Counted from the first letter of the whole stretch, positions 16,933 to 45,428 are shown. The stretch: 50,648 bases of DNA, filler included, from a bacterium (GCA_040757115.1; 3 parts of 3 records of this genome joined end to end with filler, not necessarily neighbours in it), one strand, 5' to 3'. Notes: a model not told the origin generated them from the sequence alone. Numbers and translations are program-made.

Positions 16933-17032
16933 NNNNNNNNNNNNNNNNNNNNNNNNNNNNNNNNNNNNNNNNNNNNTTAATTAATTAANNNNNNNNNNNN
17001 NNNNNNNNNNNNNNNNNNNNNNNNNNNNNNNN
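16933..17032. other. Artificial contig linker
   Basis: N-run containing TTAATTAATTAA, 100 nt. Confidence 0.97.
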
Positions 17033-18663: not shown

Positions 18664-19210
18664 CAACCTGTGAAATAGGAATATTTTGATCGTGGTTAGT
18701 GTAAGAAGGGGGATAAGGGGATAAAGGAGATATGGAGATATCAGAAGAATATCAAGAAAATCTACTTACTGAGATAATAATTCAATGTATTATCAAGACA
18801 CACCAGACACTGGGTCCAGGCTTCCTGGAAAGTATTTACCGCAGGGCAATGGTAATTGAACTTACAAAACAGGGATTGAGAGTTGAGACAGAGAAAGAAA
18901 TACTAATCTACTACGAAGGAGAAGAAGTTGAGAAACACAGATTGGATATTCTTGTAGAAAGCAAGGTAATAGTAGAACTAAAAACGGTGGAGGAATTAAG
19001 CAAAGCTCATTATGCTCAGGTTCGCTCATATTTAAAAGCTACAGGTGTAAAGGTGGCTCTTCTTGTAAACTTTGCTAAAGAAAAGGCAGATTTTAGAAGA
19101 GTGGAATTAGAATAATATCCCCTTATCTCCTTAATCTCCCTATCTCCTTTTCTTACACCAAATAGTGTGGTATAATTTTATTTTCCCAGTTCGACCTATT
19201 TCACAGGTCG
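18664..19210. mobile_element. CGACCTG-family element containing a GxxExxY gene
   Basis: CAACCTGTGAAATAGG..CCTATTTCACAGGTCG; inner GTGTAAGAA..TTCTTACAC (18699-19158). Confidence 0.8.
18732..19115 (+). CDS. GxxExxY protein (PD-(D/E)XK-like)
   Basis: LGPGFLESIY, RLDILVE, VELK, AQVRSYLK, LLVNF. Confidence 0.93.
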   Translation: MEISEEYQENLLTEIIIQCIIKTHQTLGPGFLESIYRRAMVIELTKQGLRVETEKEILIYYEGEEVEKHRLDILVESKVIVELKTVEELSKAHYAQVRSYLKATGVKVALLVNFAKEKADFRRVELE

Positions 19211-20690: not shown

Positions 20691-21890
20691 TTACTCATAC
20701 CGTAATGCGACAATAGGGTCTAGATTTGATGCTTTGTAGGCAGGATAAATCCCGGAGAACATCCCTATTCCTAATGAAAAACTTACTGCCAGAATGATTG
20801 AATTTAACGAAATTACAGTTGGTATTTTGATAAATATAGAGGCAATATTTGCCAGAAGGATTCCTCCACCTATTCCAAGACACCCTCCAATGGTGGATAT
20901 TGTTACCGCTTCAATTAAGAATTGTCCCATAATGTCTTTGCCCCTTGCACCAATTGCCTTTCTTATCCCTATCTCCTTTCTCCTTTCCAAAACAGCGGTA
21001 AGCATCATATTCATTATACCAATCCCACCAACTAATAATGAGATACAGGCAATTGCTACCCCAACTAAAGTAAGGGTTTGGTTTATTTGGGTATAAGTTT
21101 TTATAAATTCTTCTGAAGATTCTGCATTATACTTTCCTCTATTCTGGTGTCGTTTCTTAAGAAAATTAATAATGAAAGAAGAAGCCTCTTCAACACTTAT
21201 AGAGGGGATAAATCGAACCTGTAAAAAATCTATGACCTCCTTTTTGTCTTTCTCAGCTATTCTAATAGCAATGTTATAAGGGATAAAAATTGCGTCTCCA
21301 ACCCAACCTCCAATAGTCATTACTCCTATGTGCCTCCAGGCCATTACTCCAACCACTACGAATTTTTCCCTGCCTATTCTTATAACCTTTCCTATCGGAT
21401 TTTCTTCTTTAAAGAATGTCTCTGAGATATCTTTTCCTATTATGCAGACATGATGTTGTAATTTTATATCCAAATTATTAATTAATCGTCCCATAATGAG
21501 AACACAACCTTCACCATGGAAAAAGTCAGAAGAAGTTACACCATGAATACTCACTTTATCTTTAACCTTACCTTTCGTCACTATCTTTTCTATGTTAATT
21601 CTTGGTTTACTGCTTTCTACAATAGGCAATCGTTCAATTGCTCTTGCATCTTCTAATGTTATCCTTCCTTTCTGATTTGTATTGGGATCATACTCAGAAT
21701 ATATATCTATAGTATTGATACCTAACTCTTCCAACAGGTTAAGAACCTGTTTTTTTGTTCCATTCCCTATGGATATAAGGGAAACAATCGCTCCTATTCC
21801 AATAAATATACTTAATATGGCTAATATAGAACGTGTTTTATTTCCCCAGATGCCTATAAAGGCTATCCTTACCCATTCTCTAACTTTCAT
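20691..21890 (-). CDS. MacB/FtsX-type ABC permease
   Basis: VGGIGIMNMML..V.ERRKEIGIRKAIGA, ALRYE end. Confidence 0.93.
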   Translation of the reverse strand: MKVREWVRIAFIGIWGNKTRSILAILSIFIGIGAIVSLISIGNGTKKQVLNLLEELGINTIDIYSEYDPNTNQKGRITLEDARAIERLPIVESSKPRINIEKIVTKGKVKDKVSIHGVTSSDFFHGEGCVLIMGRLINNLDIKLQHHVCIIGKDISETFFKEENPIGKVIRIGREKFVVVGVMAWRHIGVMTIGGWVGDAIFIPYNIAIRIAEKDKKEVIDFLQVRFIPSISVEEASSFIINFLKKRHQNRGKYNAESSEEFIKTYTQINQTLTLVGVAIACISLLVGGIGIMNMMLTAVLERRKEIGIRKAIGARGKDIMGQFLIEAVTISTIGGCLGIGGGILLANIASIFIKIPTVISLNSIILAVSFSLGIGMFSGIYPAYKASNLDPIVALRYE

Positions 21891-22567
21891 CTATTTCTTT
21901 CACCTATTATTTTCCCATCTTGAAGGTAAATAACTCTTTTTGCAAAGGAGGCAATATGTTCATCATGGGTAACCACTAAGATAGTCTTCCCTTCTTGAGA
22001 TAGGGAAATGAAGATGGCCATAATTTCATTTCCACATTTAGTATCTAAATTACCTGTTGGTTCATCGGCTAAGATTAGTGTCGGGGTATTGGCAAGTGCT
22101 CGCGCAATAGCTACTCGCTGTTGTTCTCCACCAGATAACTCATTAGGTCTATGATTTCTTCTATCAAAAAGTCCTACCTTCTCCAATAAATATAAACTCC
22201 TTTCTCTACACTCTCTTCTCACCGCCCCTCTATAAACAAGAGGTAATTCAACATTCAAAAGGGCAGAATATTGTGGCAGTAAATTAAAACTTTGGAAGAT
22301 AAAACCTATTTTTTTATTTCTGGTCATAGCCACTTTGTCTCCATTGAAATTATTTACATATTCACCTTCAAAATAATGAAATCCTGAACTTGGAACATCT
22401 AAAAGTCCAATGATATTAAGTAAAGTTGACTTGCCAGAACCTGAAGGACCCATAATAGCTGTAAATTCCCCAGAACTAATTTGAAGCGAGATACCAGCTA
22501 AGGCACAAATATCCACACTACCCATTTTGTAAATCTTAAAGATATCCTTTAATTCTATTATTCTCAT
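21887..22567 (-). CDS. ABC ATP-binding protein (LolD/MacB type)
   Basis: [25 protein letters not shown]. Confidence 0.95.
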
Positions 22568-22573
22568 AGCCTT

Positions 22574-23824
22574 CTATAAATTCCTTTCCCTTACCTTTAC
22601 CCCAGCGGATATTTTCTCCTTATTTGAAGTAATGATTTTCTCTCCTTCTTGCAATCCCTTTTTTATAACCACCTCTACTTCATTACTTACGCCAATTTCT
22701 ACCTTTTTCATCCTGGCAGACGAACCTTCTACCGTATAAACAAAGTATCTTCCATCTTTGTTTATTAAGGCATTTTGAGGAATAACTAATACATCCTTCA
22801 TTTTGTCAATAGTTATCTCTATATCCGCCGATAAATTGGGTATCAAAAGTAAGTCCGAAGGGAATTTTTTTAATTCAATAATTGCTTCCATATAAGGATA
22901 TTCTCCGGATGTAGCACATGGAATAATCTTCATAATTTCGCCTTCTAAATAATTCCTATCCGCAGGTAGCCACTCCCCAGTAATAGTGGCTTTCAGACAT
23001 GGCTTTACTCTATTTATATCTAACTCCTCAATCTTAGCTTTAAGTAATGGTTTGTCTAAATTCATTATTTTAAATAGAGTTTCTCCAACCAGGACATATT
23101 CTTTTAAACCAACTATGTCTTCTATTATTACGCCATTAATTGGCGAGATTATTTCTGTCTCTTTTAACTCATTCTCCGCCTTCTTAAGAATTTCTTTATC
23201 TAATTTTAATTTCTTCTCTACTTCAGACAAATCATCCTTCCATACTTTCTCATAGTGTTCTATATCTACCTTCAATTGTGTTACATGGAGTTGTGCATCT
23301 TTAATTTCTTTGGTCAAAGAATCTAATTCAGGTAAAGAGATACTCTTTTTTTCATATAGCTCTTTGTAAATACATTCTTTCTTCTTAAGGTATTCCAAAT
23401 TAGTATTTGCTTTGATGAGTTCATTTTTTGCCTTTGTCAGTTCATAAGGAGAATCTTTTAATCTATTTAATGAATTCTCATCTTTGATGAGGTTAAACTC
23501 TGCCTCTTTTAATGCTACTAGATATGGGGTTTTATCTATTTTTAAGAGCACCTTATCTTTCTTTACATATTCACCCTCTTTTATTGTTTTGAGGATTATC
23601 TTTCCTGAGACAGATGTTTTAATTTCTACGGATTCTTCAGGAATTATTCTTCCTGTGGTAGATAAGGTAGAAATAAAATCCTTCTTTTTTACCGATGTTA
23701 CATCTACATTACAAATAGGTGATTTTTTAATGGTTGTAAAGATAAAAATGGGTATAAGTAATAGGATTAGTAGCCCAATTATTAAAATAGAAACTTTTTT
23801 ATGAAGATTGATTGATTTTTTCAT
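22574..23824 (-). CDS. Periplasmic adaptor / membrane fusion protein (MacA-like)
   Basis: N-terminal anchor, SG.I and SPING lipoyl halves, coiled coil, GLQEGEKI. Confidence 0.9.
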   Translation of the reverse strand: MKKSINLHKKVSILIIGLLILLLIPIFIFTTIKKSPICNVDVTSVKKKDFISTLSTTGRIIPEESVEIKTSVSGKIILKTIKEGEYVKKDKVLLKIDKTPYLVALKEAEFNLIKDENSLNRLKDSPYELTKAKNELIKANTNLEYLKKKECIYKELYEKKSISLPELDSLTKEIKDAQLHVTQLKVDIEHYEKVWKDDLSEVEKKLKLDKEILKKAENELKETEIISPINGVIIEDIVGLKEYVLVGETLFKIMNLDKPLLKAKIEELDINRVKPCLKATITGEWLPADRNYLEGEIMKIIPCATSGEYPYMEAIIELKKFPSDLLLIPNLSADIEITIDKMKDVLVIPQNALINKDGRYFVYTVEGSSARMKKVEIGVSNEVEVVIKKGLQEGEKIITSNKEKISAGVKVRERNL

Positions 23825-25209
23825 TTTTCCTCCGGTCCACTAATTTCAAAAAATTCAATTTTAGCTATTTGGTGGTCAAATAGAGTTTCTATCTTCTCTA
23901 AGATAATTTTATCCAAAGTAATTTGTTTATCACACAAATCTTCCTCTGCAATTATTTTTGCATCATATTGAGTTTGTGCAATGATAAGGTCTTGGCAGGC
24001 TATTTTTTCACTTTCTTGAAGCAGTTCAATTTGTCTTTCAAGATTTTTTATTTTAAGATACTTTTGGCGTGTAATAGATGTTATTTCTTTTTTTAGTGCT
24101 TCAAGGGTAAGTTGAGCGGCAGAATATTTATTTAAAGATGCTTTTATGTCAGAAGTAACCTCTCCACCAGTGAAAAAAGGTAAGGTAATATTTATTCTGA
24201 CATTCCATTCTTTATTAAAATCATCAAGACTTTTTTTTAAGTTTTCATCAGATCTATCATAACCATAATTCCCAGTAATCATAGCAGAAACCTTTCTGCC
24301 ACTGCGAGCTAAATTAATCTCTTTTTCTTTCAACCTAATTTCTAATTGCTGAACTTGAATTTGCAGGTTATCTTCTAATGCTTTAGAAATTGCTTCTTTT
24401 AACTGTCCTTCATAAGGGATATAGTCAGGTATAATATTAAAGTCAAATTCAGGTAAAGTATCAACATCAAGTAATTGTAAAAATTCTTCTCTTTTTCTTT
24501 CATAGATATCTTCAATCTTCATTAAATCATTTTTTGCAGTTAGAACCTCTAATTTTTTATTTAAGAGTAGAGAAGTGGTAATTATGCCCGCATCTAATTT
24601 AGATTCATACTTTTTTAGTTGTTCTTCTTTGATGTTTAATAACTTTTGATTTAATTCTATCATCTTCCTATATTTAAGTAATTCATAATAATTTCTTGAA
24701 ACTTGATAGACCAATTGTTTTTTTATTGATTCAAGATTAATTTTGGCTATTAAATATTGAATTTGTGCGATAGAAATATTGGTTGAAATCTGACCATTAT
24801 CAAGTAACCATTGGGTTAGTCCAATATTTATGTTATTAGTATATTTTTTGGAATCTTCAGCATAAAATATATTCTTATATACCTCACGGTAGTCTTGTGG
24901 TATCCAACTTGGAACATCCTCTACTGACTTTTGATATGGGCTAAATTCTGTCTTGTTGTAGCCAGAATCTATATTGAGATAAAGATGTGGTAACCATTTT
25001 GCCCATGCCTTTTTAATATTGGCTTCTAAAGAAGCAATCTCTTTTAATGCTGATTGAAGTTTTAGACTATTCTTCAAGGCAATTTGAATACCATCCTCTA
25101 AAGTTAAAGGTTGGTGATTTTTAGCTTCTTGAGCTAAATTTTCTTTTGGTGTTAATATTAAAATAAATATTAATATTAATCTTCCTAAAAAAAAGATTCG
25201 ATACAGCAT
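23821..25209 (-). CDS. TolC-family outer-membrane efflux protein
   Basis: Signal peptide, LTLED.IQIALKN, LPFFTGG, two-repeat layout. Confidence 0.88.
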   Translation of the reverse strand: MLYRIFFLGRLILIFILILTPKENLAQEAKNHQPLTLEDGIQIALKNSLKLQSALKEIASLEANIKKAWAKWLPHLYLNIDSGYNKTEFSPYQKSVEDVPSWIPQDYREVYKNIFYAEDSKKYTNNINIGLTQWLLDNGQISTNISIAQIQYLIAKINLESIKKQLVYQVSRNYYELLKYRKMIELNQKLLNIKEEQLKKYESKLDAGIITTSLLLNKKLEVLTAKNDLMKIEDIYERKREEFLQLLDVDTLPEFDFNIIPDYIPYEGQLKEAISKALEDNLQIQVQQLEIRLKEKEINLARSGRKVSAMITGNYGYDRSDENLKKSLDDFNKEWNVRINITLPFFTGGEVTSDIKASLNKYSAAQLTLEALKKEITSITRQKYLKIKNLERQIELLQESEKIACQDLIIAQTQYDAKIIAEEDLCDKQITLDKIILEKIETLFDHQIAKIEFFEISGPEEK

Positions 25210-25222
25210 TTATTCTTAGTAT

Positions 25223-25708
25223 TTAGAAAAAGATATCCTTTACCAAATCGAAAAATTTCTTTGATAAACTCTTTTTCTCTTTTTCCCCTTTCGTGATGAT
25301 AATAATTATAGTTACTACCACGCTGATAATTATAGCCAGAGTAGGGATAAAAAAACCAAAAACCCTATAGCTTATAGAAATTAATGCGTAACTTCCTATC
25401 AAAGTAATAAAAAGACCTATAAATATGGCACATATAATAAGTGGCTTGATAATAAGATTTAAGATAGTGTTATAGATGAGTTTGAGAATCTCTCCGCTCT
25501 TGAGTATATTTTTTTCTATGGTGGTAAGACTATCTTTTCTAAGACGAACTCGATAAATAAATATACCCACTAATATCCCTAAGGCAATAAAAAATATATC
25601 CCTTAGTGTAATCCAATGAGTGATTATATTTTCGATTAATATCTTTAAAGTGGCAATGCAATTGAACCACCATGGTAAATAATGATTGATGACATCATTT
25701 AACAACAT
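25223..25708 (-). CDS. Small multi-pass membrane protein
   Basis: Three or more hydrophobic helices; first gene of the efflux module. Confidence 0.65.
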   Translation of the reverse strand: MLLNDVINHYLPWWFNCIATLKILIENIITHWITLRDIFFIALGILVGIFIYRVRLRKDSLTTIEKNILKSGEILKLIYNTILNLIIKPLIICAIFIGLFITLIGSYALISISYRVFGFFIPTLAIIISVVVTIIIIITKGEKEKKSLSKKFFDLVKDIFF

Positions 25709-25845: not shown

Positions 25846-27618
25846 CTAACTAAAGTTATAAGAGCATGTGGCATCTTCTATTCTTTGAAACTGTCTTTGA
25901 AACAGACGATAATAATATCCCTTTTCTTTAATTAAATCAAAATGTGAGCCCATTTCTACAAGTTTACCCTGATGTAATACAATTATTTTCTCAGCGTTTA
26001 TAACAGTTCCCACACGATGGGCAATAATAATAGTGGTTTTCCCTTTAATAAGATTTATTAATAAGTTATGGAATTCTATTTCTGCTTTTGGGTCTAAAGA
26101 TGAGGTAGCTTCATCTAAGATAAATATATTGGGATTCTTTAGCAGGGCTCTAGCAATTGTAATAAATTGTCGTTCTCCTCCAGATAATTTTATTCCTCCT
26201 TCTCCAACCATTGTCTGATATTTATTGGGAAGGGCAGTAATAGAGTTATGAATCCCTACAGTTTTTGCCACTGCAATAATTTCTTCTTCACTTGCGTTTT
26301 TCTTACCAAAGGCAATGTTATCATAAATAGAGCCATTAAATAAAATTGTCTCCTGAGGGATATATCCAATCCTTTCTCTTAAAGAGCTAATAGTAACATC
26401 TTTAATATCCCGATTGTCAATTTTGACCTTTCCATTAGTTGGATCATAAAATCGAAGGAGGAGGTTTATCAAAGAGCTCTTGCCTGAACCATTAAGTCCT
26501 ACCAAAGTTACAATTTCCCCTGGTTTTATCTCTAAATTAATATCCTTTAAAGCAAAAAAATTATCTTCATAGCGCAGGGAAACTTTTTCAAATTGAATAT
26601 GTCCTTTTATTCTATTAGTGAAGGGGAAAGCATCAGATTTATCTTTTATTTCAGATTCAATAGATAAAATCTCATAGATTCTATCAAGAGAGGCTAATGA
26701 TCTTTGAAAATCAATATAAAAATTACTCACACCAGTTAGAGAATCTGTCAATAGATATAAATAGAATAATAATCCTCCCAGCGTTCCTGGAGTTAATAAC
26801 CCTTGATTAATCTCATATCCTCCATACCAGATAATGAGTATTAGGAAAAATGGATTTAAAAAATTTATTAAAGAACCAAAACCAGCATATATCTTTTCTT
26901 CTTTTAAAGAAGATGAAAGGAGATGACTACTTTCTTTTGAGAATCGGTCAATCATCTTATTTTCTTGAACAAATGACTGAATAATCTTTATGGAAGGGAA
27001 AAGTTCCTGAAAAAGGGCATTTATCTTGCCTGTTTTTACCCGGATATCATAGCTTATTTTTCTCATTTTTTCTCCAATTTTAACCGTAAGAAAGGCTATA
27101 ATTACTATTCCAGATATCATAATTATTGATATTTTCCACGAAAGTATAAAAATAATAACCAATCCTCCTATTGAGAATAGTGTATCTTTCAAAAAATAGA
27201 GGAAATCTAAAATGACTCCATATTGGATTTGGTTGAGGTCGTTAAATGCTCGAGAGCAAATCTCTCCTGACTGTCTGTTTTTAAAGAAACTGAGTGGTAG
27301 ATTAATTAAGTGAGAATAAAGGTTTTCCCTCAGATCTACCGTAATCCTTTCTCCAATATATCTTGCCAAATAATTTAGACAATATTGGAACAATTCCCTA
27401 AATAGTATTATGATTAGGCAAAGTAAACATAATTCTGAAATAACCCATATCCTTTTTCCTTTTTGCAATATACCATCAATAATTTCCTTTATTAATAAAG
27501 GAAACCATAAGTTCAAGATAGTTATAAAAATAAGGAATATAGAAACTATTACCATCTTAATTTTATATTCCTTCAGATAAATTAATATTATTGAGAATAA
27601 TTTTGTTGTATTATTCAA
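25846..27618 (-). CDS. ABC exporter, fused permease + ATPase, no peptidase domain
   Basis: TM domain, GLNGSGKS, LSGGERQ, LDEATSSLD. Confidence 0.93.
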   Translation of the reverse strand: MNNTTKLFSIILIYLKEYKIKMVIVSIFLIFITILNLWFPLLIKEIIDGILQKGKRIWVISELCLLCLIIILFRELFQYCLNYLARYIGERITVDLRENLYSHLINLPLSFFKNRQSGEICSRAFNDLNQIQYGVILDFLYFLKDTLFSIGGLVIIFILSWKISIIMISGIVIIAFLTVKIGEKMRKISYDIRVKTGKINALFQELFPSIKIIQSFVQENKMIDRFSKESSHLLSSSLKEEKIYAGFGSLINFLNPFFLILIIWYGGYEINQGLLTPGTLGGLLFYLYLLTDSLTGVSNFYIDFQRSLASLDRIYEILSIESEIKDKSDAFPFTNRIKGHIQFEKVSLRYEDNFFALKDINLEIKPGEIVTLVGLNGSGKSSLINLLLRFYDPTNGKVKIDNRDIKDVTISSLRERIGYIPQETILFNGSIYDNIAFGKKNASEEEIIAVAKTVGIHNSITALPNKYQTMVGEGGIKLSGGERQFITIARALLKNPNIFILDEATSSLDPKAEIEFHNLLINLIKGKTTIIIAHRVGTVINAEKIIVLHQGKLVEMGSHFDLIKEKGYYYRLFQRQFQRIEDATCSYNFS

Positions 27619-28777
27619 CTACCTTTATTCCTCCTTTAAACACTTTATTTATTAAGAATAAAACAAGCAAAGTAAATATTCTTATGACATCTCGAATATT
27701 CTCTGCCATAAAAATAGACGCTCCTATTGGAATACCATCTCTTCCCATTTTACTGAGTAACTTAGGCAAAAATTTATCATCAAAAAAATTCTCAACATCT
27801 TTAAACAATTTAAAGAATAATATTCTTTTAATCCTCCAAGGTTTTAAATCATCTAAAATTTTTAAAGGAATTGGAGCATCAAGTAATCTTTCGGCAAAAT
27901 AAAAAGTAAAATACATAGAATTTTTTATTCGATACTCATAAGATTTCTTAACTACATATTCCCAGTTTATCGTATAATAGGTAACAATATTTGTTATATC
28001 GCCTATAAGTTTCAATTCAAAGTTATGGTTAATAGATAGATGAGGACAGAGACTCAATAACATATCTTCGGGTGAAAGTATAAGTGTATTAACTTCCCCT
28101 AATTGAGAAAATTGGGCATTTTCCCATATATCTTTCATTTCTATTTTTTGAAATAAAACACCTTCAAATACTGTAGTATGAATCTCTAAAGGTATTTTTA
28201 CCTGTGGATGGATATACATAGGATGTAGCAGAATCTTTCTTTTTCTTTCTCTAAAAAGGACCCATAGTAGCCACTCTGCAATTTTTGAGACATTAATTTC
28301 TTCTTTATAATAAAGGACATAACCTAACTCATCTAACATTTTCTCACATTTGAACATATCCTCTTTGCGAACTAAAAGATCAATATCTCCAACTCCTCTT
28401 AGATATATAAGATTAGAATAGACTTTCTCTAAAGAATACCCTTTAAAAAGAATAACTTTTAGATTATTTTTATAGAATTTTTCTAAAATTCTATTTAGTT
28501 CCTTCTCATACCTTAAAGATTCAATAATGTACCTTTTATATAAATTCTCCAATTTCATTATAACTTCACATGATAATATCTCTTTTAGATTAATTCTCTT
28601 TAAATTGTAATATAGTAAAGCCTGAATATTATGAACCTTGGCCTTTTCTAATATATATCTCCAATTTAATTTTTCTTTTAAAAGTTCTATAACTTTATCA
28701 GATATATCCTTGTTGATTGTTACTCTTGTACAGTAGAGTAAAACTAAATTTTCTTTTAAAAATTTCTTTACTTTCAC
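27611..28777 (-). CDS. Nucleotidyltransferase family protein of the type found in lasso/PqqD clusters
   Basis: ILFKG..L..VY....R..GDIDLLV and LEIH motifs. Confidence 0.82.
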   Translation of the reverse strand: MKVKKFLKENLVLLYCTRVTINKDISDKVIELLKEKLNWRYILEKAKVHNIQALLYYNLKRINLKEILSCEVIMKLENLYKRYIIESLRYEKELNRILEKFYKNNLKVILFKGYSLEKVYSNLIYLRGVGDIDLLVRKEDMFKCEKMLDELGYVLYYKEEINVSKIAEWLLWVLFRERKRKILLHPMYIHPQVKIPLEIHTTVFEGVLFQKIEMKDIWENAQFSQLGEVNTLILSPEDMLLSLCPHLSINHNFELKLIGDITNIVTYYTINWEYVVKKSYEYRIKNSMYFTFYFAERLLDAPIPLKILDDLKPWRIKRILFFKLFKDVENFFDDKFLPKLLSKMGRDGIPIGASIFMAENIRDVIRIFTLLVLFLINKVFKGGIKVVE

Positions 28778-28801
28778 TGGTCAAATTTTCCAATTTTGAT
28801 A

Positions 28802-29428
28802 CTACAAAATTTCCCTCTTATTTTTCAGGAGTGTAGGATAAGGTAATTTTTTACTGCTGATTTTACTATACATGTTATAAATACCAAAGATAATTACCCA
28901 GGGGATTATAGTAATTATTTCGCCTATTTTACCTATAATCAGTGGGAAGTAGGATATTAAACATACCCTTTTTAATAAAGATATACATATCGCTACTGCA
29001 AATGAATATTTTGCTGTTAAATAAGAAAATATTTTTACTCTCTTATTCTCTAAATCTATTTTTAGTCCATTTTTTTTTATTATTTCTCTTACCTTACCTA
29101 TTACTTTTTCTTCTTCGACTAATTCATCAATAAAAAAAACAAAATCTCCTTTCGTTAAGAAACTTTTTCCCTTTATCTCTTGTTGTATTCTAATAACTCT
29201 ATGGCCAATAAACATCTCTTCTTCACCATAATGAACTACAATAATATCTCCTACTTTAATTTCCTCGGTAGGAATTTTCTTAATCAAGATCTTATCTGAA
29301 TAATTAATCCATGGAAACATACTCCACCCTTTTACTCCCGAATATAAAATTGCTCCTTTTTCTAAGCACTCTTTAGCTAATTCCAATTCAGTTTTTGTAT
29401 ATTTTTTGTTTTGTTGGACAAAATTCAT
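28802..29428 (-). CDS. S24/S26-family (signal-peptidase-like) peptidase
   Basis: GWSMFPWI (Ser), GDII, HRV (His), TKGD. Confidence 0.85.
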   Translation of the reverse strand: MNFVQQNKKYTKTELELAKECLEKGAILYSGVKGWSMFPWINYSDKILIKKIPTEEIKVGDIIVVHYGEEEMFIGHRVIRIQQEIKGKSFLTKGDFVFFIDELVEEEKVIGKVREIIKKNGLKIDLENKRVKIFSYLTAKYSFAVAICISLLKRVCLISYFPLIIGKIGEIITIIPWVIIFGIYNMYSKISSKKLPYPTLLKNKREIL

Positions 29429-29478
29429 TCTTCTCCTCTCCAGTAAGATTATAGTAAAGTACTATCTCCCACCTTTCT

Positions 29479-29522
29479 AAAAAGTCGCAGTTTACTTTGA
29501 TGAGTAAACTGCGACTTTTTTT
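29479..29522 (-). terminator. Perfect hairpin downstream of the precursor gene
   Basis: AAAAAGTCGCAGTTTACT-ttgatg-AGTAAACTGCGACTTTTT: 18-bp arms including the A/T tracts. Confidence 0.85.
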
Positions 29523-29539
29523 GTTAGACTACTTCGCTG

Positions 29540-29674
29540 CTACGACTTAGAGTTGACCTTACATCCATTCTTGCACCGACACGGCTTAGTTTTAATAGTC
29601 TTATTGCACCACAAAGCAGTCTCCTCAAATATTTTTTCTGAAATAATTTGAGGCGTTTCATATTGCCGTTTCAT
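29540..29674 (-). CDS. Putative RiPP precursor peptide, 44 aa (absent from the ORF track)
   Basis: MKRQYETPQIISEKIFEETALWCNKTIKTKPCRCKNGCKVNSKS*. RBS AAGGAGGTGA 6 nt upstream; start overlaps the end of the rSAM gene; YxxP leader motif; 4 Cys. Confidence 0.88.
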   Translation of the reverse strand: MKRQYETPQIISEKIFEETALWCNKTIKTKPCRCKNGCKVNSKS

Positions 29675-30731
29675 TTCTTATCACCTCCTTTCTCATTTCA
29701 GCTATCTCCTTGTCGTAAGGAGAACAGGCTAATAATCCATATCCTTCCAAAAATGTAGCTCCCATACATTTCCCACACAGATTAGCAATATCACAATTGT
29801 AACATTCTTCATCAATAGCACGCAAGTTTCTTATTTCAAAAAGTTTTTCTGATGTCCACCAGATATTATGAAATGTATCCTTTCTTAGATCTCCTACTTC
29901 TACCGGCATCCCTATACAAGGGAAAACTTTTCCAATTGGAGAAATTGCACATTGAATCGTTCCTGTTCCACAAAATTCTCGATATGGTCTTTCTTTAATA
30001 CTTTCCTTTTCTTCTCTTGGTATACACGCTTTTTCTTCTATCCATATACCAGTTCCCCTTTCTTTCTCATACACATTTTTAAGAAAAACAAATAATTCTG
30101 ACCTATTAAGTCTATACTTTGCGGGTTCAGAATCCCCATCATTTTTATAAGTGATATATACATCTGGCCTGGTTAATATTCCTAATTTTTCCCCCATTTC
30201 TTTTATTAATTTATATTCTTTAAAATTCTGCTTCATATATATAGTTTTTAAGATAACCTTTATTCCACTATCTTTCAATAATCTAATAGCATTCATAGTT
30301 TTTTCAAACGAACCATTTGTTCTTGTAATTTTATCATGAGTTAACGCTGTAGCCCCATAGAGACTAATTTCTACTGAAGAAACATGCAGTTCTTTTATCT
30401 TTCTTACTATTTCTGAATCTATTAAGGTTCCATTAGTATATAGAATAACATCAAACATATTTTCTCTCGCATAACTTATTATGGTAAATAAATCTTTTCT
30501 TAAAAAAAATTCACCGCCGGTAAATGTAATGGTAAACACTTTTTCTCCCGCCAGTTGGTCTATAATATTTTTAATCTCTTCTGTAGAAAGTTCCTCTTCT
30601 GGAGATTGAGAATATTTTACTACATAACAATGGATACATTTCAAATTACACCAACAAGTAAGTTCAATTGCTGCTGTAAGTGGAAAGCCCTTTTCCATAT
30701 ATTTTTTTGCTAATTCATCTTCAAGACCCAT
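29658..30731 (-). CDS. Radical SAM/SPASM peptide maturase
   Basis: CNLKCIHC, FTGGE, TNGT; SPASM cysteines CGTG...VFPC...CYNCDIANLCGKC...C. Confidence 0.93.
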   Translation of the reverse strand: MGLEDELAKKYMEKGFPLTAAIELTCWCNLKCIHCYVVKYSQSPEEELSTEEIKNIIDQLAGEKVFTITFTGGEFFLRKDLFTIISYARENMFDVILYTNGTLIDSEIVRKIKELHVSSVEISLYGATALTHDKITRTNGSFEKTMNAIRLLKDSGIKVILKTIYMKQNFKEYKLIKEMGEKLGILTRPDVYITYKNDGDSEPAKYRLNRSELFVFLKNVYEKERGTGIWIEEKACIPREEKESIKERPYREFCGTGTIQCAISPIGKVFPCIGMPVEVGDLRKDTFHNIWWTSEKLFEIRNLRAIDEECYNCDIANLCGKCMGATFLEGYGLLACSPYDKEIAEMRKEVIRNETAI

Positions 30732-30761
30732 TTGAAATCACCTCACTTTATCCAAGAAGAT

Positions 30762-31037
30762 TCAAATCATCTCTAAAACTATTAGTTTCTTATTGCATAA
30801 TTCTTTTACAAAGTCACAAACTTCTTTTTTAGCCACATCCTCTTCAACATTATACTCATTACAAATGATGTAAATAATCTCTTTGATAGTCATTTTCCCA
30901 TCTGCAAGTTCCCATATTCTAGTTCCTACTTCATTTAAGGAATGTAGAATTCCTTCTTCTGGAGACAAAATCGTGGCATTATTGTCAATTATCCTAAATG
31001 CTGTATTCATACTTCTAACTACATAACTATTGATCAT
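30762..31037 (-). CDS. PqqD-family RiPP recognition element
   Basis: 91 aa, LNEVGTRIWELADG, EYNV, F..EL. Confidence 0.92.
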   Translation of the reverse strand: MINSYVVRSMNTAFRIIDNNATILSPEEGILHSLNEVGTRIWELADGKMTIKEIIYIICNEYNVEEDVAKKEVCDFVKELCNKKLIVLEMI

Positions 31038-31878
31038 TTTTTATACACCTCCAAAAAGATTTATTAGGTAAGAAATGTAGTTCATAACAGGGAATTTTTT
31101 CTACCAAATTACAGCATAAAGTAAACAATTTGTTACTTATCTCACTTCTATGAGAAAAAAATATGATATTTGGCATAATTTCTACTACAGCCTTATATGG
31201 AGATAATTTTTTTAGATATACATCTTTATCTTTTTTTAATAGGAAAATTTTCTTAATCTCCGAAGAAATGTTAACATTATTCCCTTCCTCCCATAACATC
31301 CCCCAAAATGGAACTCCAAATATTTTATATCTTCTATTAATGTTGCGAATAAGAGTTATTTCATCGGTCAACAAAATTGTATCATCTTTTAATAAGTTAG
31401 CTATTGTTGACTTTCCTGCTTCAGAGGGGCCACAAAATACAAATCCTTCCTTGGAATCAATTACACTTGATGCATGTAACAAGATTCCTTCATAATATTT
31501 TGGGAATAACCAACCAGCACACATCCGTAAGAAATTTTCTACTCCCTCTATCTCTATTTCCTGAAGTTTTAATTCTCCTTCATTTCTTCTAAAATCTATT
31601 ATTCCTGAAAAATCCCACCTAAAAACGAAAATTTTGTCTTTTTTAGAGATAATTTTCAATTCCCGAAGTTCCTTCAATTTAATGTTCTTTTTAACTTGTA
31701 CATCTATTATAAAATTAGGTTCTTTCATTGATAAAAAAGTATTATATTTTCTTTTAATTAAATCCATCAACTCATAATTATCACCTCTAAAAACAAAACA
31801 TATTTCTCCAATTTCTATAGTTACCTTATTATAACCACAAATTTCATTTTGAAGTTTATAACTCTTCACTTCTTGCAT
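31027..31878 (-). CDS. HPr-kinase-like P-loop protein
   Basis: LLHASSV, GPSEAGKST, TDE, G.PFWG, C-terminal PCYEL.F. Confidence 0.82.
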   Translation of the reverse strand: MQEVKSYKLQNEICGYNKVTIEIGEICFVFRGDNYELMDLIKRKYNTFLSMKEPNFIIDVQVKKNIKLKELRELKIISKKDKIFVFRWDFSGIIDFRRNEGELKLQEIEIEGVENFLRMCAGWLFPKYYEGILLHASSVIDSKEGFVFCGPSEAGKSTIANLLKDDTILLTDEITLIRNINRRYKIFGVPFWGMLWEEGNNVNISSEIKKIFLLKKDKDVYLKKLSPYKAVVEIMPNIIFFSHRSEISNKLFTLCCNLVEKIPCYELHFLPNKSFWRCIKNDQ

Positions 31879-31901: not shown

Positions 31902-32999
31902 CTATATTTTCATCTCATAGATTCGGTATCTTTTATATAACTTACCTCCCATTTTCTCTGCTGCTCTTTGGGTTAATATATTATCCTCCAGGATCCATGA
32001 AAACTCACATTGCTGATAACCTTTTTTTAAGGCTATTTTTAACGATTCTAAGTAGAGCAACGCCTCAAATCCTCTTCTTCTATATTCGGGTTTAACTCCC
32101 ATAGCTATCACACGCAAACTCTTAATCTTTCGGAGTCGCCATAATAATTTTATTGTATCCCACCAGTGTTTATTCAAATTTCTTAACGCCTCGTTATAAT
32201 TAGGCAAAGTCATAACAAATCCTGCAAAATTGCCTTTCACTTCTAAAATAAGTAGTAACTCTGGAACAAGTAAAGATTTTAATCGTTTTGCCATATACAT
32301 AATCTCTTCATCTGTCATTGGGACGAAACCCCAGTTGTCACGCCAACTGGTATTATAAATCTCTTTAATTATATTTATCTCTTGCGCAAAATTTTTCAAG
32401 TTTATCGGTCTAACCCGAGCTCTTTGTTTTTCCACTCTCTTAGATATTTTCTCCATATTTCCAATCTGTGCTGGTGTAATTTCAAAAAGATAGGCATATA
32501 AATCTTTACACTTTTCTAACCCATATTTTTCTATGTAGTCAATATAATACCGAGGATTATATGGCATCATTAAAAATGGTGGGGAATCAAAACCTTCAAC
32601 TAAAAAACCACATTCATCATTCATAGATGGATTTACCGGTCCTCGGATTATCTCAATATCTTTTTCTCTTAACCAATCACAAACTTCATCCAGCAACCTT
32701 TTAGCAAAAGCATAATCCCTTGAACACTCAAAAAAACCGAAGAAGCCACATTTTTCATTATGAAAACTGATATGATTATAATCAATAATTCCAGCAATCC
32801 GTCCTACTATTTTCTCTTTTTTTCTTAGTAAAAAGAGCATTCTTTCGGCATGATTCCACAAAGGATTCTTATTTCCAAGGATAAATTTGTACTCCTTAAT
32901 TTGAGGAGGAATCCAGTTCATATCACCTTTATAGACTCTCCAAGGAAACCTTACAAAATCAGTTAGGGATCTATCTTCCTTTACTACTTCAATATTCAT
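31902..32999 (-). CDS. Tandem-GNAT acyltransferase, bacterial ceramide synthase (bCerS/YghO)-like
   Basis: FP..VY....WIPP, GRI, GFFGFFEC, IRGP, G.LVEGF, MPYNP.YY, NWGFVP, SWILEDN; directly downstream of an SPT-like gene. Confidence 0.75.
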   Translation of the reverse strand: MNIEVVKEDRSLTDFVRFPWRVYKGDMNWIPPQIKEYKFILGNKNPLWNHAERMLFLLRKKEKIVGRIAGIIDYNHISFHNEKCGFFGFFECSRDYAFAKRLLDEVCDWLREKDIEIIRGPVNPSMNDECGFLVEGFDSPPFLMMPYNPRYYIDYIEKYGLEKCKDLYAYLFEITPAQIGNMEKISKRVEKQRARVRPINLKNFAQEINIIKEIYNTSWRDNWGFVPMTDEEIMYMAKRLKSLLVPELLLILEVKGNFAGFVMTLPNYNEALRNLNKHWWDTIKLLWRLRKIKSLRVIAMGVKPEYRRRGFEALLYLESLKIALKKGYQQCEFSWILEDNILTQRAAEKMGGKLYKRYRIYEMKI

Positions 33000-33015: not shown

Positions 33016-33678
33016 TTATCCTGGGATTAAATTTAATTTCTTTCCTACAGATTCGAATATTTCAAGAGCCTTATCTAACTGTTCATCTGTATGAGTAGCC
33101 ATATAAGTAGTTCGAATACGCGATTGCTCTTTGGGTACTGCTGGAGTAATAACTGGATTAGTAAAAATACCATTATCAAAGAGCAATTTCCACATTTGAA
33201 AAACTTGAAAATTATCACCAATAATAATAGGAATGATTGGAGTTTCACTCTTTCCGATATTAAATCCTAAAGTTTTAAGTTCTCTTCGCATCTTGTTCAC
33301 ATTCTCCCAAAGTCTCTGTCGTCTTTCTGGCTCCTTCTCGATAATTTCTATTGCTGTACTAATTGAAGCTGCCAAAGATGGAGGTAAACTTGCACTAAAC
33401 ATTAAACTTCTAGCATGATGTTTCAAATAATGAATTACTTCTTCATCTCCAGCAATAAATCCTCCTATTGAAGCCAATGATTTGCTACAAGTACCCATAA
33501 CTAAATCAACTTCATCTTCTAGCCTAAAATGTTCTAAAGTCCCTCTGCCATCCCTTCCTAAGATACCTGTACCATGGGCATCATCAATCATAATGCGGCC
33601 ATTATACTTTTTAACCAGGTGAACCAATTCAGGAAGTTTAACAATATCTCCTTCCATACTAAAAACTCCTTCACTCAC
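33016..33678 (-). pseudogene. C-terminal part of a serine palmitoyltransferase-like alpha-oxoamine synthase, cut by an IS
   Basis: EGVFSMEGD, DDAHG, MGTCSKSLASIGGF (PLP Lys), MATHT; similarity stops at the IS end at 33679. Confidence 0.8.
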
Positions 33679-33804
33679 TGTTAATGGCAAACCAAAATTG
33701 ACCCACTTTTGGCAATGGAAATTGACCCACCCATGTAAAAAAATCAGATCAAAAATGAACAAATTTGGCAATGAGAATTGACCCACCCCCGGATATAAAG
33801 ATTG
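33679..33804. mobile_element. IS21-family end
   Basis: Begins TGTTAATGGC; three subterminal repeats GGCAA-n-AATTGACCCAC at 33686, 33711 and 33767; runs into the contig end. Confidence 0.8.
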
Positions 33805-33904
33805 NNNNNNNNNNNNNNNNNNNNNNNNNNNNNNNNNNNNNNNNNNNNTTAATTAATTAANNNNNNNNNNNNNNNNNNNNNNNNNNNNNNNNNNNNNNNN
33901 NNNN
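33805..33904. other. Artificial contig linker
   Basis: N-run containing TTAATTAATTAA, 100 nt. Confidence 0.97.
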
Positions 33905-39551: not shown

Positions 39552-39969
39552 TTTTTTATCCCTCCTTCATTTTGGTAATTGGTAACTGGTGAATGGTAAT
39601 TAGTTACCAGTTACCATTTAACCGCTTACTTACTTTATAGTTTCGTGAAGCCCTATATATTATATGCTACATAGCATAAAGATTCTCCTGAAAATAGGAA
39701 GTAGAGAGTAGAAAGTAGAAAGTAAAGAAAACATCACTCCTCACGCCTATCTCCTTACTTCCTACCTTCTATCTCCTATCACTATTTTCATCTTCCTTTG
39801 TGAGCCGTAGGTTCATGTCCGGTTCTCCTGAAAATAGTTTTTTCACGCAAAGGACGCAAAGGTAAATTTTTCCTTTATTCCCCTTTGCGTTCTTTGCGTG
39901 CTTGGCGTGAAACTTCCTTTCTTCAAAGAACACAAAGGTTACAAAGTTCTTTCGTTTACCCTGAAGACC

Positions 39970-40056
39970 TGGTGCGAGAGGCGGGAGTTGAACCCGCAAG
40001 GGGAATCCCCACTGGATCCTAAGTCCAGCGCGTCTGCCAGTTTCCGCCACTCTCGC
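39970..40056 (-). tRNA. tRNA-Leu (anticodon TAG)
   Basis: GCGAGAG acceptor stem, CTGGA-CTTAGGA-TCCAG anticodon arm, long variable arm, GGTTCAA, encoded CCA. Confidence 0.96.
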
Positions 40057-40071
40057 TTTTACTATATTTTA

Positions 40072-40170
40072 ATAATACCATACCAGGCGATTTTTGTCAA
40101 TCCTCTTTTTGAATGGACAGCAATTCTAATTATAAATTTACTTGCAATATTTAAAACTATACTGTATAAT
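40072..40170. promoter_or_regulatory. Divergent promoters for tRNA-Leu and hemA
   Basis: Minus strand TTGACA(40095-40100)-17-TATTAT; plus strand TTGCAA(40142)-17-TATAAT(40165). Confidence 0.7.
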
Positions 40171-40179
40171 GAAGTAGAA

Positions 40180-41436
40180 ATGGAGATTATCGTTGTTGGC
40201 GCAAATCATAAAACTATGCCCATCGAATTGCGTGAAAAACTCGCTATCCCGCAAACAAAACTTATAGAAGCATTAAAATCACTCAATCAATCTATCAAAG
40301 AAAGGGTGATTTTATCTACCTGCAATCGGATAGAAGTATATGCGGCTACGACTTATGTAAAAGAGGCAAAGATAAAGATAATAAATTTCTTACATCAATA
40401 CTATCAGGCGAATTTGGAAAATTATCTCTATGTTCATCAAGACAAAGAAGCAATAAGGCATTTATTCGATGTCGCCGCAAGTTTAGATTCGATGATTATT
40501 GGTGAGCCGCAAATTTTAGGACAGGTTAAGGAATCTTATGAACAGGCGTTTAAAATTAATGTTACCGATACTTATCTGGATAATTTATTCCAGAAGGCAA
40601 TATTAGTTGGAAAACAGGTAAGAAATCAGACCGCGATTGGTAAAGGAGCTGTTTCGGTAAGTTTTGCCGCCATAGAATTAGCTAAAAAGATATTTGGTAA
40701 ATTAGACGGTAAGCGGGTCTTAATTATTGGTGCAGGCAAAATAAGTGAAGATACTGCAAAGCACCTATTTGCAAATAAAGTCAGCACAATTTTAGCCACT
40801 AATCGTACCTACGAAAAGGCAAAAGAAATTGCGGATAAATTCTCAGGTCAGGCAATTAAATTTGATGACCTTATTCAAACTTTACCTGAGATGGATATTG
40901 TCATTAGTTCAACATCCGCCCCACATCTCATTATCAAAAAAGAGGATATAAAAAACCTTATGTCCTTACGCAAACATAAACCCATATTCTTTATCGATAT
41001 TGCTGTGCCACGGGATATTGACCCGGGAATCGGCTCTTTTGATGGAATATACCTTTATAATATTGATGATTTACAGACAGTCGTCCAATCTAACATTAAA
41101 TCAAGACAAAAAGAGATAAAAAAATGTCAAATGATTATTGAAAAAGAAACCGAGAAATTCTGTCATTGGCTTAATTTTAGACAACTTTCTCCGATTATTT
41201 CATCATTACAACAAAAAATGGAATCTATTCGAGAGGAGGAATTAAATAAGACTTTTCTCAAGGAAAAAAATCTTACCCAAAAGGAAAAAGAAAGACTAAA
41301 ATTAATTACCGCTAAACTTACTGAAAGATTCTTAAAAGAACCAATTATTGCCTTGAAGAAATATGCCTCATCCGATGACCCAACTTATGGAAAGATATTA
41401 ACCGATTTATTTAATCTCAATAACGACGGACGCTAA
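40180..41436 (+). CDS. hemA: Glutamyl-tRNA reductase
   Basis: STCNR.E, GEPQILGQV, IGAG, DIAVPRD; start corrected to MEIIVVG. Confidence 0.95.
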   Translation: MEIIVVGANHKTMPIELREKLAIPQTKLIEALKSLNQSIKERVILSTCNRIEVYAATTYVKEAKIKIINFLHQYYQANLENYLYVHQDKEAIRHLFDVAASLDSMIIGEPQILGQVKESYEQAFKINVTDTYLDNLFQKAILVGKQVRNQTAIGKGAVSVSFAAIELAKKIFGKLDGKRVLIIGAGKISEDTAKHLFANKVSTILATNRTYEKAKEIADKFSGQAIKFDDLIQTLPEMDIVISSTSAPHLIIKKEDIKNLMSLRKHKPIFFIDIAVPRDIDPGIGSFDGIYLYNIDDLQTVVQSNIKSRQKEIKKCQMIIEKETEKFCHWLNFRQLSPIISSLQQKMESIREEELNKTFLKEKNLTQKEKERLKLITAKLTERFLKEPIIALKKYASSDDPTYGKILTDLFNLNNDGR

Positions 41437-44949: not shown

Positions 44950-45428
44950 GTAGCCGTTCAGGTGTAAATAAGGGAAAAGGGGAAATAGAGGAAAAATGGA
45001 AAAGGAAGAAAGAGAAATACTAATCAATAAAATCATAGGTTATTGTATAGATGTACATAAAGAGTTAGGTCCGGGATTTATTGAAACTGTTTATCACAAA
45101 AGCTTAGAGAGCAAATTTAAAGATGAAAAACTAAACTTTGAATCTCAGAAGGAGATACCAATATATTATCATAATAGATTTGTTGGAATACATAAGTTAG
45201 ATTTCTTAATAGAGAATGAGATTATTTTGGAAATTAAGACAGTTGAAGAAATTCATAACAAGTATTATGCACAGGTAAGATCCTATCTGAAAGCAGTAGA
45301 TAAAAAGATGGGTTTGTTGATCAACTTTGCTGATTTTAAACTGGATATACGGAGAGTGGAAATAAATAAATAATTTTCCCTTTTCCCCAACTTTTCCATT
45401 TTCCCTTCATTACACCCTGAACGCTTAC
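44950..45428. mobile_element. GTAAC-family element containing a GxxExxY gene
   Basis: GTAGCCGTTCAGG..CCTGAACGCTTAC; purine- and pyrimidine-rich inverted flanks around the gene. Confidence 0.75.
44996..45373 (+). CDS. GxxExxY protein
   Basis: VHKELGPGFIETVY, LDFLIE, LEIK, AQVRSYLK. Confidence 0.93.
   Translation: MEKEEREILINKIIGYCIDVHKELGPGFIETVYHKSLESKFKDEKLNFESQKEIPIYYHNRFVGIHKLDFLIENEIILEIKTVEEIHNKYYAQVRSYLKAVDKKMGLLINFADFKLDIRRVEINK

Follow-up and report, generated by a model that had tools for sequence, protein, structure and literature searches.

A candidate peptide biosynthetic operon that may join the linear polyphosphorylated peptide toolkit to a radical SAM/SPASM enzyme

The closest described system, from Paenibacillus alginolyticus DSM5050, is the lpp cluster (LppA/K/B/S/D/N), whose products are termed linear polyphosphorylated peptides (LPP; Popov et al., Nat Commun 2026;17:6633, PMC13381572). 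The LPP toolkit comprises the SipW-like peptidase LppS, LppB, which is a discrete recognition element (RRE) for ribosomally synthesized peptides that carry post-translational modifications (RiPPs), the HprK-like kinase LppK, the nucleoside triphosphate (NTP) transferase LppN and the MsbA-like transporter LppD. LPP leaders read YxxPxVLxHQxIxFETxxS. LppK adds up to four phosphates on core Ser3, while LppS cuts after the Thr of FET only together with LppB, F-3, E-2 and T-1 being required. The same text calls LPP and paeninodins restricted to Bacillota. In phosphorylated lasso peptides, PsmK (pseudomycoidin) and PadeK (paeninodin) phosphorylate the C-terminal Ser, which receives one to three phosphates followed by hexose(s); the PF14907-type protein PsmN (D134/D136) is required for placing the hexose (+162 Da) on the phosphate (Zyubko et al., Chem Sci 2019, PMC6993621). 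Here we analyze a 50,648-nt stretch of bacterial DNA (GCA_040757115.1, three parts joined with filler; hereafter the window), which contains a minus-strand operon encoding relatives of these proteins together with a radical S-adenosylmethionine (rSAM) enzyme of the SPASM type.

The operon consists of seven co-oriented and tightly packed open reading frames (ORFs; 31878..25846, Table 1), separated in gene order by -11, 30, -17, 111, 24 and -8 nt. A sequence-only reading had described such a seven-gene set, and every gene is present where it was announced; the precursor gene, for which that reading gave no coordinates, is placed at 29674..29540. The gene content and its packing, the conservation of catalytic residues and of the precursor, and the kinship with LPP, lasso and ScmC systems are direct observations. 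Judging from sequence and by analogy, we estimate at about two chances in three that the operon makes a RiPP joining the accessory toolkit of LPP and phosphorylated lasso peptides to an rSAM/SPASM maturase. The product would most likely be small, cysteine-cross-linked, phosphate-tagged and exported.

The precursor ORF overlaps the stop codon of the rSAM gene by 17 nt, and a strong ribosome-binding site, GGAGGTGA, lies 6 nt upstream of its ATG. A leader-only hidden Markov model (HMM), made from 50 curated candidates after 10 of 60 regular-expression matches had been removed by eye, has this ORF as its sole match among 918 frames of the window (E 1e-10). The predicted leader covers residues 1-19, with a Y5-E-T-P8-Q-I10 motif and an F16-E-E-T19 end; we place the cleavage after Thr19 by reference to LppA, which is cut after FET. 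The predicted core (residues 20-44) is 25 aa long and ends with Ser44. It contains four Cys, seven Lys or Arg and no Asp or Glu (pI 9.85), with Trp at position 3, and offers Thr7, Thr10 and Ser23 besides Ser44.

Relatives were collected with a 7-row rSAM alignment, one genome being kept per species. Of 149 confirmed relatives, 80 loci were retained (L018-L097), which together with the window and L013-L017 give 86 loci; their six-frame ORFs were searched with iterated HMMs, and many of the contigs are truncated. In most loci, the rSAM gene is followed by a small ORF that begins K/R-rich, contains [Y/W]xxPx[ILV] and has a Cys 17-21 residues further on; in L013, L016 and L017, this place is taken by homologues of the window leader. 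Hence, the homologous loci, when checked for a conserved peptide, do carry one. At E <= 1e-4, the leader HMM retrieved 51 ORFs among 20,825 stop-to-stop frames, corresponding to 50 distinct sequences from 44 loci. When a profile made from 47 precursors was run against 1.84 billion proteins, 840 representatives came up at E <= 1e-3, and no model of NCBIfam or of the local Pfam copy matches the family precursors. By sequence, the family spans many bacterial phyla and some archaea.

Three types were distinguished among the 150 top representatives: type I (42/150), with consensus YeKP.IvSEkiFETlALaCGKC, which contains an LPP-like FET; type II (89/150), with consensus Y.KP.l..V.LrpEEAVLG.CKt; and type III (11/150), with a W-type motif. 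The window precursor is of type I, its Tyr being 18 positions from the first Cys. In loci with several rSAM genes, the leaders are of the W type (WxxPxL) and the precursors number up to three. Three Cys are typical (29/50 locus precursors, 112/150 top representatives). Of the 50 distinct locus precursors, 35 end in Ser and 6 in Thr, as compared with a terminal Ser in 9.4% (1402/14882) of the control small ORFs taken from these loci. Among the top representatives, 132/150 end in Ser.

The rSAM enzyme possesses a Radical_SAM domain (PF04055, 3e-28) and a SPASM domain (PF13186, 4.4e-8). The CX3CX2C motif (C28/C32/C35) is found in 29/29 homologues, and the SPASM cysteines C254, C272, C310, C313, C319 and C322 in 28-29 of the 29. 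The best PDB match by sequence is the thioether-forming SkfB (5.4e-18). The StsB, AlbA, SkfB and PapB models are matched, all below cut-off, and no NCBIfam equivalog cut-off is reached. The closest non-self match is 40% identical, 151 proteins have E <= 1e-30 among 3802 candidates, and the relatives come from metagenome-assembled genomes (MAGs) of many phyla, some being fused to PqqD. By analogy, some rSAM modification of the precursor appears very probable. Thioether bridges of the sactionine or ranthionine type would be the likeliest chemistry for a cross-link, with a chance that we set slightly under one half.

SPASM enzymes catalyze many different reactions. The same cluster and substrate could therefore serve an rSAM enzyme that forms C-C or C-O cross-links, epimerizes residues or performs an MftC-like oxidative decarboxylation, the Cys then being disulfide-bonded or acting as metal ligands. 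The usual number of three Cys, being odd, fits disulfides alone poorly, and the closest solved relative, SkfB, forms thioethers. On the other hand, the best peptide-maturase match is MftC (140 bits, ahead of StsB with 118), the CGKC motif resembles a redox or metal-binding motif, and the top feature cluster in the ESM Atlas is auto-named 'mycofactocin radical SAM maturase family'. These Atlas neighbors are generic, and the library matches, all sub-cutoff, are not diagnostic either. Overall, we regard a non-thioether chemistry as unlikely, while it is the alternative that survives best.

The first gene of the operon encodes a P-loop protein related to ScmC and HprK. Its NCBIfam matches are all below cut-off (ScmC 1e-7, HprK_rel_A 2.2e-5, HprK_rel_B 6.1e-5), and it has no match in the local Pfam copy. 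The latter lacks the PF27840 model (Pfam 38.1), so that the assignment of PF27840.1, which exists for the window's own protein, is that of a precomputed database listing; this family is named 'ScmC' in the ESM Atlas. The predicted Atlas model resembles ScmC clusters (TM 0.89) and an 'HPr kinase/phosphorylase C-terminal domain' cluster (TM 0.82). In sequence searches of the PDB, only P-loop proteins and, weakly, PEPCK were matched. In 47 homologues, H135 and G155-K156 are kept in 47/47, T158 in 46/47 and D172 in 45/47. When 40 members of the ScmC-like family were compared with NCBIfam, sub-cutoff matches were obtained to HprK_rel_B for 28, to HprK_rel_A for 21 and to ScmC for 19. In total, 765 ScmC-like proteins were found in a large protein database.

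From the PadeK and PsmK precedent and the conserved terminal Ser of the family, we consider it somewhat more probable than a coin toss that this protein phosphorylates the peptide, most likely on Ser44. It could instead modify an internal Ser or Thr, activate a residue transiently or act as a scaffold for the rSAM enzyme. Such roles would agree with the targeting of Ser3 by LppK, with the Ser and Thr residues that the window core holds besides Ser44, with the distant nature of the HprK similarity, with ScmC-rSAM fusions in five loci and with the presence of the gene in the loci of 13 precursors whose last residue is not Ser. The enrichment of terminal Ser over controls, the retained P-loop with its invariant His and Asp, and the C-terminal Ser modification of paeninodin and pseudomycoidin argue in the opposite direction. 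A role other than C-terminal Ser kinase is thus rather improbable in our estimate, a little more so than a non-thioether rSAM chemistry.

The arrangement recurs beyond the window, also around its closest rSAM homologues, in L013, L016 and L017. Among the 86 loci, ScmC-like genes were detected in 58, PqqD in 58, S26 peptidases in 39, PF14907 proteins in 26 and ABC genes in 19. Restricting the count to the 36 untruncated loci (4 kb or more to either side of the rSAM gene, neighbors within 6 kb), 27 have ScmC-like and PqqD genes near the rSAM gene, which argues against chance juxtaposition. These 27 include 22 with an S26 peptidase, 22 with a leader-HMM precursor, 10 with the nucleotidyltransferase (NTase) and 9 with an ABC gene. 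The counts define a conserved core of ScmC, PqqD, rSAM, precursor and S26 peptidase, with NTase and exporter as frequent accessories; the window carries the full set. In addition, gene fusions tie the parts of the cassette together: S26-NTase fusions of ~520-540 aa (L039 5128-6744, L049 9141-10706, L069 4261-5868), ScmC-rSAM fusions of ~650-674 aa (L080 358-2346, L081 7926-9893, L086 3299-5323, L091 650-2602, L092 4839-6851), a ScmC-PqqD fusion of 410 aa (L076 25-1257) and PqqD-rSAM fusions (L067, L068).

A quick maximum-likelihood tree of 81 rSAMs, computed without characterized reference enzymes, pairs the window enzyme with that of L013 (SH-aLRT 96), the locus of the nearest relative, from the same taxonomic family. 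The pair stands within a clade of 10 rows, most of them from Omnitrophota/PVC MAGs, and all 10 have a PqqD/ScmC context. In the enclosing 73-row clade, this context is found in 60 rows and is absent from 13; as a label on the tree, it changes 6 times as compared with 18.8 in shuffles. Eight of the 13 context-free rows form one Armatimonadota sub-clade (L018, L020, L021, L022, L025, L029, L031, L032), whose rSAM/SPASM enzymes are 35-36% identical to that of the window and have no PqqD or ScmC-like neighbors. The grouping of the rSAM enzyme with cofactor maturases, a point that the sequence-only reading had left to be checked, is not what the tree and scores indicate. A maturase of cofactors (AhbD/NirJ-type heme or other) merely juxtaposed to an LPP-like cassette would account for the top NCBIfam matches, AhbD and NirJ2, and for the presence of hemA, encoding glutamyl-tRNA reductase (GluTR), ~9 kb away on the other strand. 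Nevertheless, these matches reach just 180 bits (AhbD) and 163 bits (NirJ2), the cut-off being 500 for both, the precursor ORF overlaps the end of the rSAM gene, PqqD-rSAM and ScmC-rSAM fusions exist and the clade is tied to the PqqD/ScmC context. We therefore rejected a heme or cofactor maturase on score and context, and hold it to be highly improbable.

The stand-alone RRE and SPASM enzyme postulated from the sequence are both real. The RRE matches PF05402 (3.6e-17), its best NCBIfam match being lasso_PqqD_Bac, below cut-off. Its family profile finds the lasso protein TbiB1 first (1.9e-19), then LppB (9x8z_B, 3.2e-14) and PbaB1 (9x90_B, 1.8e-12); PqqD proper ranks behind these (1.5e-8). The counterpart of Asn33, at the Pro-kink of LppB, is N35 (N in 26/35), and that of the Tyr-binding Asp70 is E72 (D in 32/35, E in 3/35).

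The S26 peptidase exceeds the cut-off of TIGR02228, the archaeal-type signal peptidase I model (59.6 bits, cut-off 51.85). S36 is kept in 24, H76 in 27, D95 in 27 and D101 in 22 of 27 homologues, and the S36-H76-D101 spacing of 40/25 compares with 39/25 for S29-H68-D93 of LppS. The protein has no N-terminal hydrophobic segment, its only hydrophobic stretch being at 141-186. Peptidase and RRE genes are ~1.3 kb apart in the same operon. The NTase matches PF14907 (1.1e-45) and has D131 and D133 in 21/21 homologues, comparable to catalytic D134/D136 of PsmN. The exporter, whose gene overlaps the stop codon of the NTase gene by 8 nt, contains ABC_membrane (7.9e-46) and ABC_tran (9.4e-36) domains and matches MsbA_rel below cut-off (5.9e-132).

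Five parts, namely peptidase, RRE, kinase, NTase and exporter, are thus common to the LPP toolkit and the window. As in LPP clusters, a peptidase of the signal peptidase I type is co-localized with a discrete RRE and accompanied by an HprK-like kinase, an NTP transferase and a transporter resembling MsbA. The likeness of the window proteins to LppK, LppN and LppD is one of family assignment, not of direct sequence alignment. The RRE profile that matches LppB, with counterparts of N33 and D70 kept, and the LppS-like spacing of the peptidase extend the likeness, and the window leader shares the YxxPx[IV] motif for the RRE and the F-E-(E)-T end. However, the LPP consensus of leader and Ser3 does not hold for the window: the distance from YxxP to the cleavage site is two residues shorter, the H and Q are missing, and Trp occupies core position 3. 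LPP are linear and have no other class-defining enzyme, whereas the window inserts an rSAM/SPASM gene between those of the RRE and of the precursor; the LPP paper contains no occurrence of radical, SPASM or rSAM (PMC13381572). Moreover, the window core is Cys-rich and its family has a conserved C-terminal Ser instead. LPP precursors have 35-200 aa and highly variable C termini, whereas those of the window family mostly have 40-65 aa. LPP are described from Bacillota only, whereas the window family occurs in many phyla and the window host belongs to an unclassified lineage outside Bacillota.

The clusters of paeninodin and pseudomycoidin share with the window an HprK-like kinase, a PF14907 NTP transferase, a discrete PqqD-type RRE and an ABC exporter, and their precursors also combine a [Y/W]xxP leader with a C-terminal Ser. 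The earlier statement that HPr-kinase-like and NTase genes accompany paeninodin-type lasso clusters agrees with the literature (PMC6993621). The discrete RRE and the leader Y5-E-T-P8-Q-I10 conform to the lasso pattern [Y/W]xxPx[LVIAF], but the places of the lasso cyclase and B2 cysteine protease are taken by the rSAM enzyme and the S26 peptidase. As had been anticipated, a Pfam scan of 38 window ORFs detected neither an Asn-synthase-like cyclase nor a B2 domain of the transglutaminase-like type. A lasso cluster with its cyclase and B2 protease genes at another place in the genome, which the lasso-type best matches of the RRE, the TfuA leader as best PDB match of the precursor profile (E 0.12) and the kinase and PF14907 genes might suggest, is the least probable reading and was rejected, since the 38 ORFs lack both domains, the predicted core lacks any Asp or Glu that could be the isopeptide acceptor, and the same cassette recurs with rSAM and S26 genes.

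To our knowledge, SynChlorMet (ScmC/ScmD/ScmE/ScmF; TIGR04249, 04248, 04250, 04251) and GeoRSP (TIGR04302, 04303) cassettes are bioinformatically defined and no product is known for them; the full-text literature search turned up no paper describing them. In outline, their architecture is that of the window: an HprK-like ScmC, a PqqD homologue and one or more PqqE-like rSAM/SPASM enzymes. The likeness to SynChlorMet proposed earlier stands in so far as the kinase-like protein falls in the Pfam ScmC family; it fails at the NCBIfam cut-offs. The window proteins score 31.6 bits for ScmC (cut-off 125), 37.6 for ScmD (100), 104.9 for ScmE (400) and 86.9 for ScmF (400), and in the GeoRSP models 43.6 for PqqD (100) and 107.3 for the rSAM enzyme (400). 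Strict membership in SynChlorMet or GeoRSP was rejected, as these cut-offs are unmet for the window and for the multi-rSAM relatives L080, L089 and L077. SynChlorMet also has two rSAM enzymes against one in the window, which adds the S26 peptidase, NTase and exporter. The cut-offs of the pyrroloquinoline quinone pathway are likewise missed (PqqE 97.6 bits against 381.35; PqqD TIGR03859 34.3 against 46).

The window has in common with sactipeptides and ranthipeptides a SPASM rSAM enzyme (CX3CX2C and six SPASM Cys) and a Cys-containing core. In the maturases SkfB, AlbA, StsB, CteB and PapB, however, the RRE is an N-terminal domain, whereas that of the window is separate and of lasso/LPP type. 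We know of no sactipeptide or ranthipeptide pathway that includes a kinase, an NTase or an S26 peptidase. No publication on the rSAM-bearing ScmC/PqqD family was found in a literature search that largely left out the full text of subscription journals; one further query gave only a 2014 genome-mining paper mentioning an HPr kinase in lasso clusters. The earlier claim that this enzyme set has no characterized product agrees with this outcome for the complete set including the rSAM enzyme; the part without it has been characterized experimentally as LPP (PMC13381572).

These observations can be assembled into a putative pathway. By homology with LppB and the lasso B1 proteins, the RRE would bind the leader at Y5-E-T-P8-Q-I10 and present the core to the rSAM/SPASM enzyme, which would install intramolecular cross-link(s) at the core cysteines. 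The ScmC/HprK-like enzyme would then phosphorylate the peptide, likeliest on the Ser44 side chain and possibly several times. Speculatively, the PF14907 protein might add a group to the phosphate, such as a hexose, as PsmN does, or a nucleotide. The S26 peptidase together with the RRE would cut after Thr19 (…F-E-E-T / A-L-W-C…), as LppS does after its FET motif, and release the cationic 25-aa core. The MsbA-like exporter would carry the product over the inner membrane; a MacAB-TolC-like pump encoded nearby may, more speculatively, carry it over the outer membrane or provide self-protection.

Several points weigh against this scheme. The kinase assignment is built on distant similarity, Pfam Hpr_kinase_C being matched by only 2 of the 40 ScmC-like family members and PEPCK_ATP by 6. 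In the LPP paper, the phosphosite is core Ser3 and not the C-terminus, and LppN was inactive in the heterologous host (PMC13381572). The count of 132/150 terminal Ser is partly biased, since the search profile contained the terminal column. Of the 50 locus precursors, 15 end in a residue other than Ser, 13 of them within loci that have the kinase-like gene, so that the terminal-Ser rule is strong but not absolute. The F-E-E-T end of the window leader is one residue longer than FET, and exact FET occurs in only 18/150 top representatives. As to the rSAM enzyme, its top library matches are to the heme enzymes AhbD (179.9 bits) and NirJ2 (163.1 bits), both far from their cut-offs, and the peptide-maturase models score below these; as its matches are far sub-cutoff and the tree lacks characterized references, the type of cross-link is a guess. 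Only 10/27 and 9/27 core loci have NTase and ABC genes. Finally, the exporter is 72% identical in L013, whereas the biosynthetic genes are just 28-41% identical; it may hence belong with the conserved efflux genes and not with the cassette.

We tentatively propose, at odds just short of even, that the operon represents an undescribed RiPP class, the long-missing product class of ScmC/'SynChlorMet-like' cassettes. It would be defined by a lasso-type leader, a core of ~25 aa with 3-4 Cys cross-linked by the rSAM enzyme, a phosphate tag set on the C-terminal Ser by an HprK-like kinase with an NTase-fold partner, and a cytoplasm-facing, SipW-like cut after (F)ET.

Downstream of the operon lie the four genes of a tripartite efflux pump (Table 1), with Pfam OEP (7.7e-49), HlyD_D23/HlyD_3, ABC_tran, and MacB_PCD plus FtsX domains. 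The four genes also follow the cluster in L013 (8137-11998), where they are 56-72% identical to those of the window; neither OEP nor HlyD genes were detected beside the other 84 loci. The cassette appears to be seated at a conserved efflux locus, and a link of the pump to the peptide is only what we infer. In L013, the order of peptidase and NTase genes is swapped. The biosynthetic genes of the window have a G+C content of 26.5-32%, lower than that of the MacB and epimerase genes (35-37%), and ScmC-like genes were found in only 2/24 genomes of the host's phylum. Together with the contrast of identities to L013, this composition and rarity suggest a mobile cassette inserted beside a conserved efflux operon. 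The window release factor is 75-83% identical to those of unclassified MAGs, 78% to that of one labelled Nitrospirota and ~62-64% to those of Candidatus Desantisbacteria, which points to an uncultured, non-Bacillota lineage as host. Among sequencing runs, a single DNA run, which may be its source, and no RNA run were listed as containing this DNA.

Two neighboring genes were rejected as members of the cluster, as neither has a homologue in the other 85 loci: a GNAT gene (32999..31902), 23 nt upstream of the kinase-like gene, and a gene for a 161-aa membrane protein (25708..25223). A lineage-specific role is possible for either. The hairpin after the precursor gene has a minimum free energy of -27.7 kcal/mol (z -6.55, 0/200 shuffles as stable) and recurs after the L013 precursor (z -3.61); a simple terminator scan did not report it. 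With z <= -3 in just 2/43 loci, it is a lineage-specific element and not a family feature.

Table 1. Genes and elements of the operon and of the adjacent efflux set (positions in the window)
Feature	Position	Strand	Remarks
ScmC-family / HPr-kinase-like P-loop protein	31027..31878	-	283 aa; putative peptide kinase
Stand-alone PqqD-type RRE	30762..31037	-	91 aa; PF05402
rSAM/SPASM enzyme, putative peptide maturase	29658..30731	-	357 aa; PF04055 + PF13186
Precursor peptide gene	29540..29674	-	44 aa; ribosome-binding site + leader HMM
Hairpin, terminator/attenuator-like	29479..29520	-	18-bp perfect stem, A-tract + U-tract, directly after precursor stop codon
SipW/archaeal-type signal peptidase I homologue (S26), putative leader peptidase	28802..29428	-	208 aa; TIGR02228
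PF14907 (NTP_transf_5) nucleotidyltransferase-fold protein	27611..28777	-	388 aa
MsbA-like ABC exporter, permease + ATPase fused	25846..27618	-	590 aa
OEP/TolC-like protein, HlyD-like adaptor, MacB-type ATPase + permease (tripartite efflux pump)	20691..25209	-	possibly associated

Other features of the window were also recorded. Two tandem KaiC-family ATPase genes (9115-10503 and 11346-12770, plus strand) are followed by genes for a GAF/HD-GYP protein (13488-15080, plus strand) and a GAF/GGDEF protein (15184-16758, plus strand); the group looks like a KaiC-linked cyclic di-GMP signaling module. Two small PD-(D/E)XK_3 genes, at 18732-19115 (1.3e-39) and 44996-45373 (1.6e-35), both on the plus strand, are ~26 kb apart. 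A very large ORF (46685-50647, plus strand) of at least 1321 aa, with weak Big_7 and PDU_like matches, runs off the window, in a stretch where G+C rises from ~33-37% to 44-47%; no giant gingipain-like protease was recognized in the window. Two pairs of 44-base N runs are located at 16933-17032 and 33805-33904, and the latter probably cut an aminotransferase-like ORF (33016-33786). A tRNA gene (39973-40056, minus strand, 54.7 bits) lies opposite the first codons of the GluTR (hemA) ORF (39898-41436, plus strand). Since the Pfam match of GluTR starts only at residue 100, the true start of this ORF is probably further downstream.

The family is very widespread. The five-part toolkit of the window operon is already known from LPP, and what would be new is the rSAM-bearing combination. 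The window adds one more member to this family and not a new principle. The precursor is short and its predicted cleavage and phosphorylation sites are explicit, which makes the hypothesis directly testable. The biological role could be antimicrobial, in signaling, or related to the envelope or to biofilms. If the proposed pathway is right, two rare modifications, rSAM cross-linking and serine (poly)phosphorylation, would meet in one small exported molecule, possibly along with phosphoglycosylation. The logic of LPP, in which a signal peptidase guided by an RRE removes the leader and an HprK-type enzyme phosphorylates, would reach far beyond Bacillota and into mostly uncultured phyla. ScmC/SynChlorMet-type cassettes would thereby gain a precursor and a testable product.

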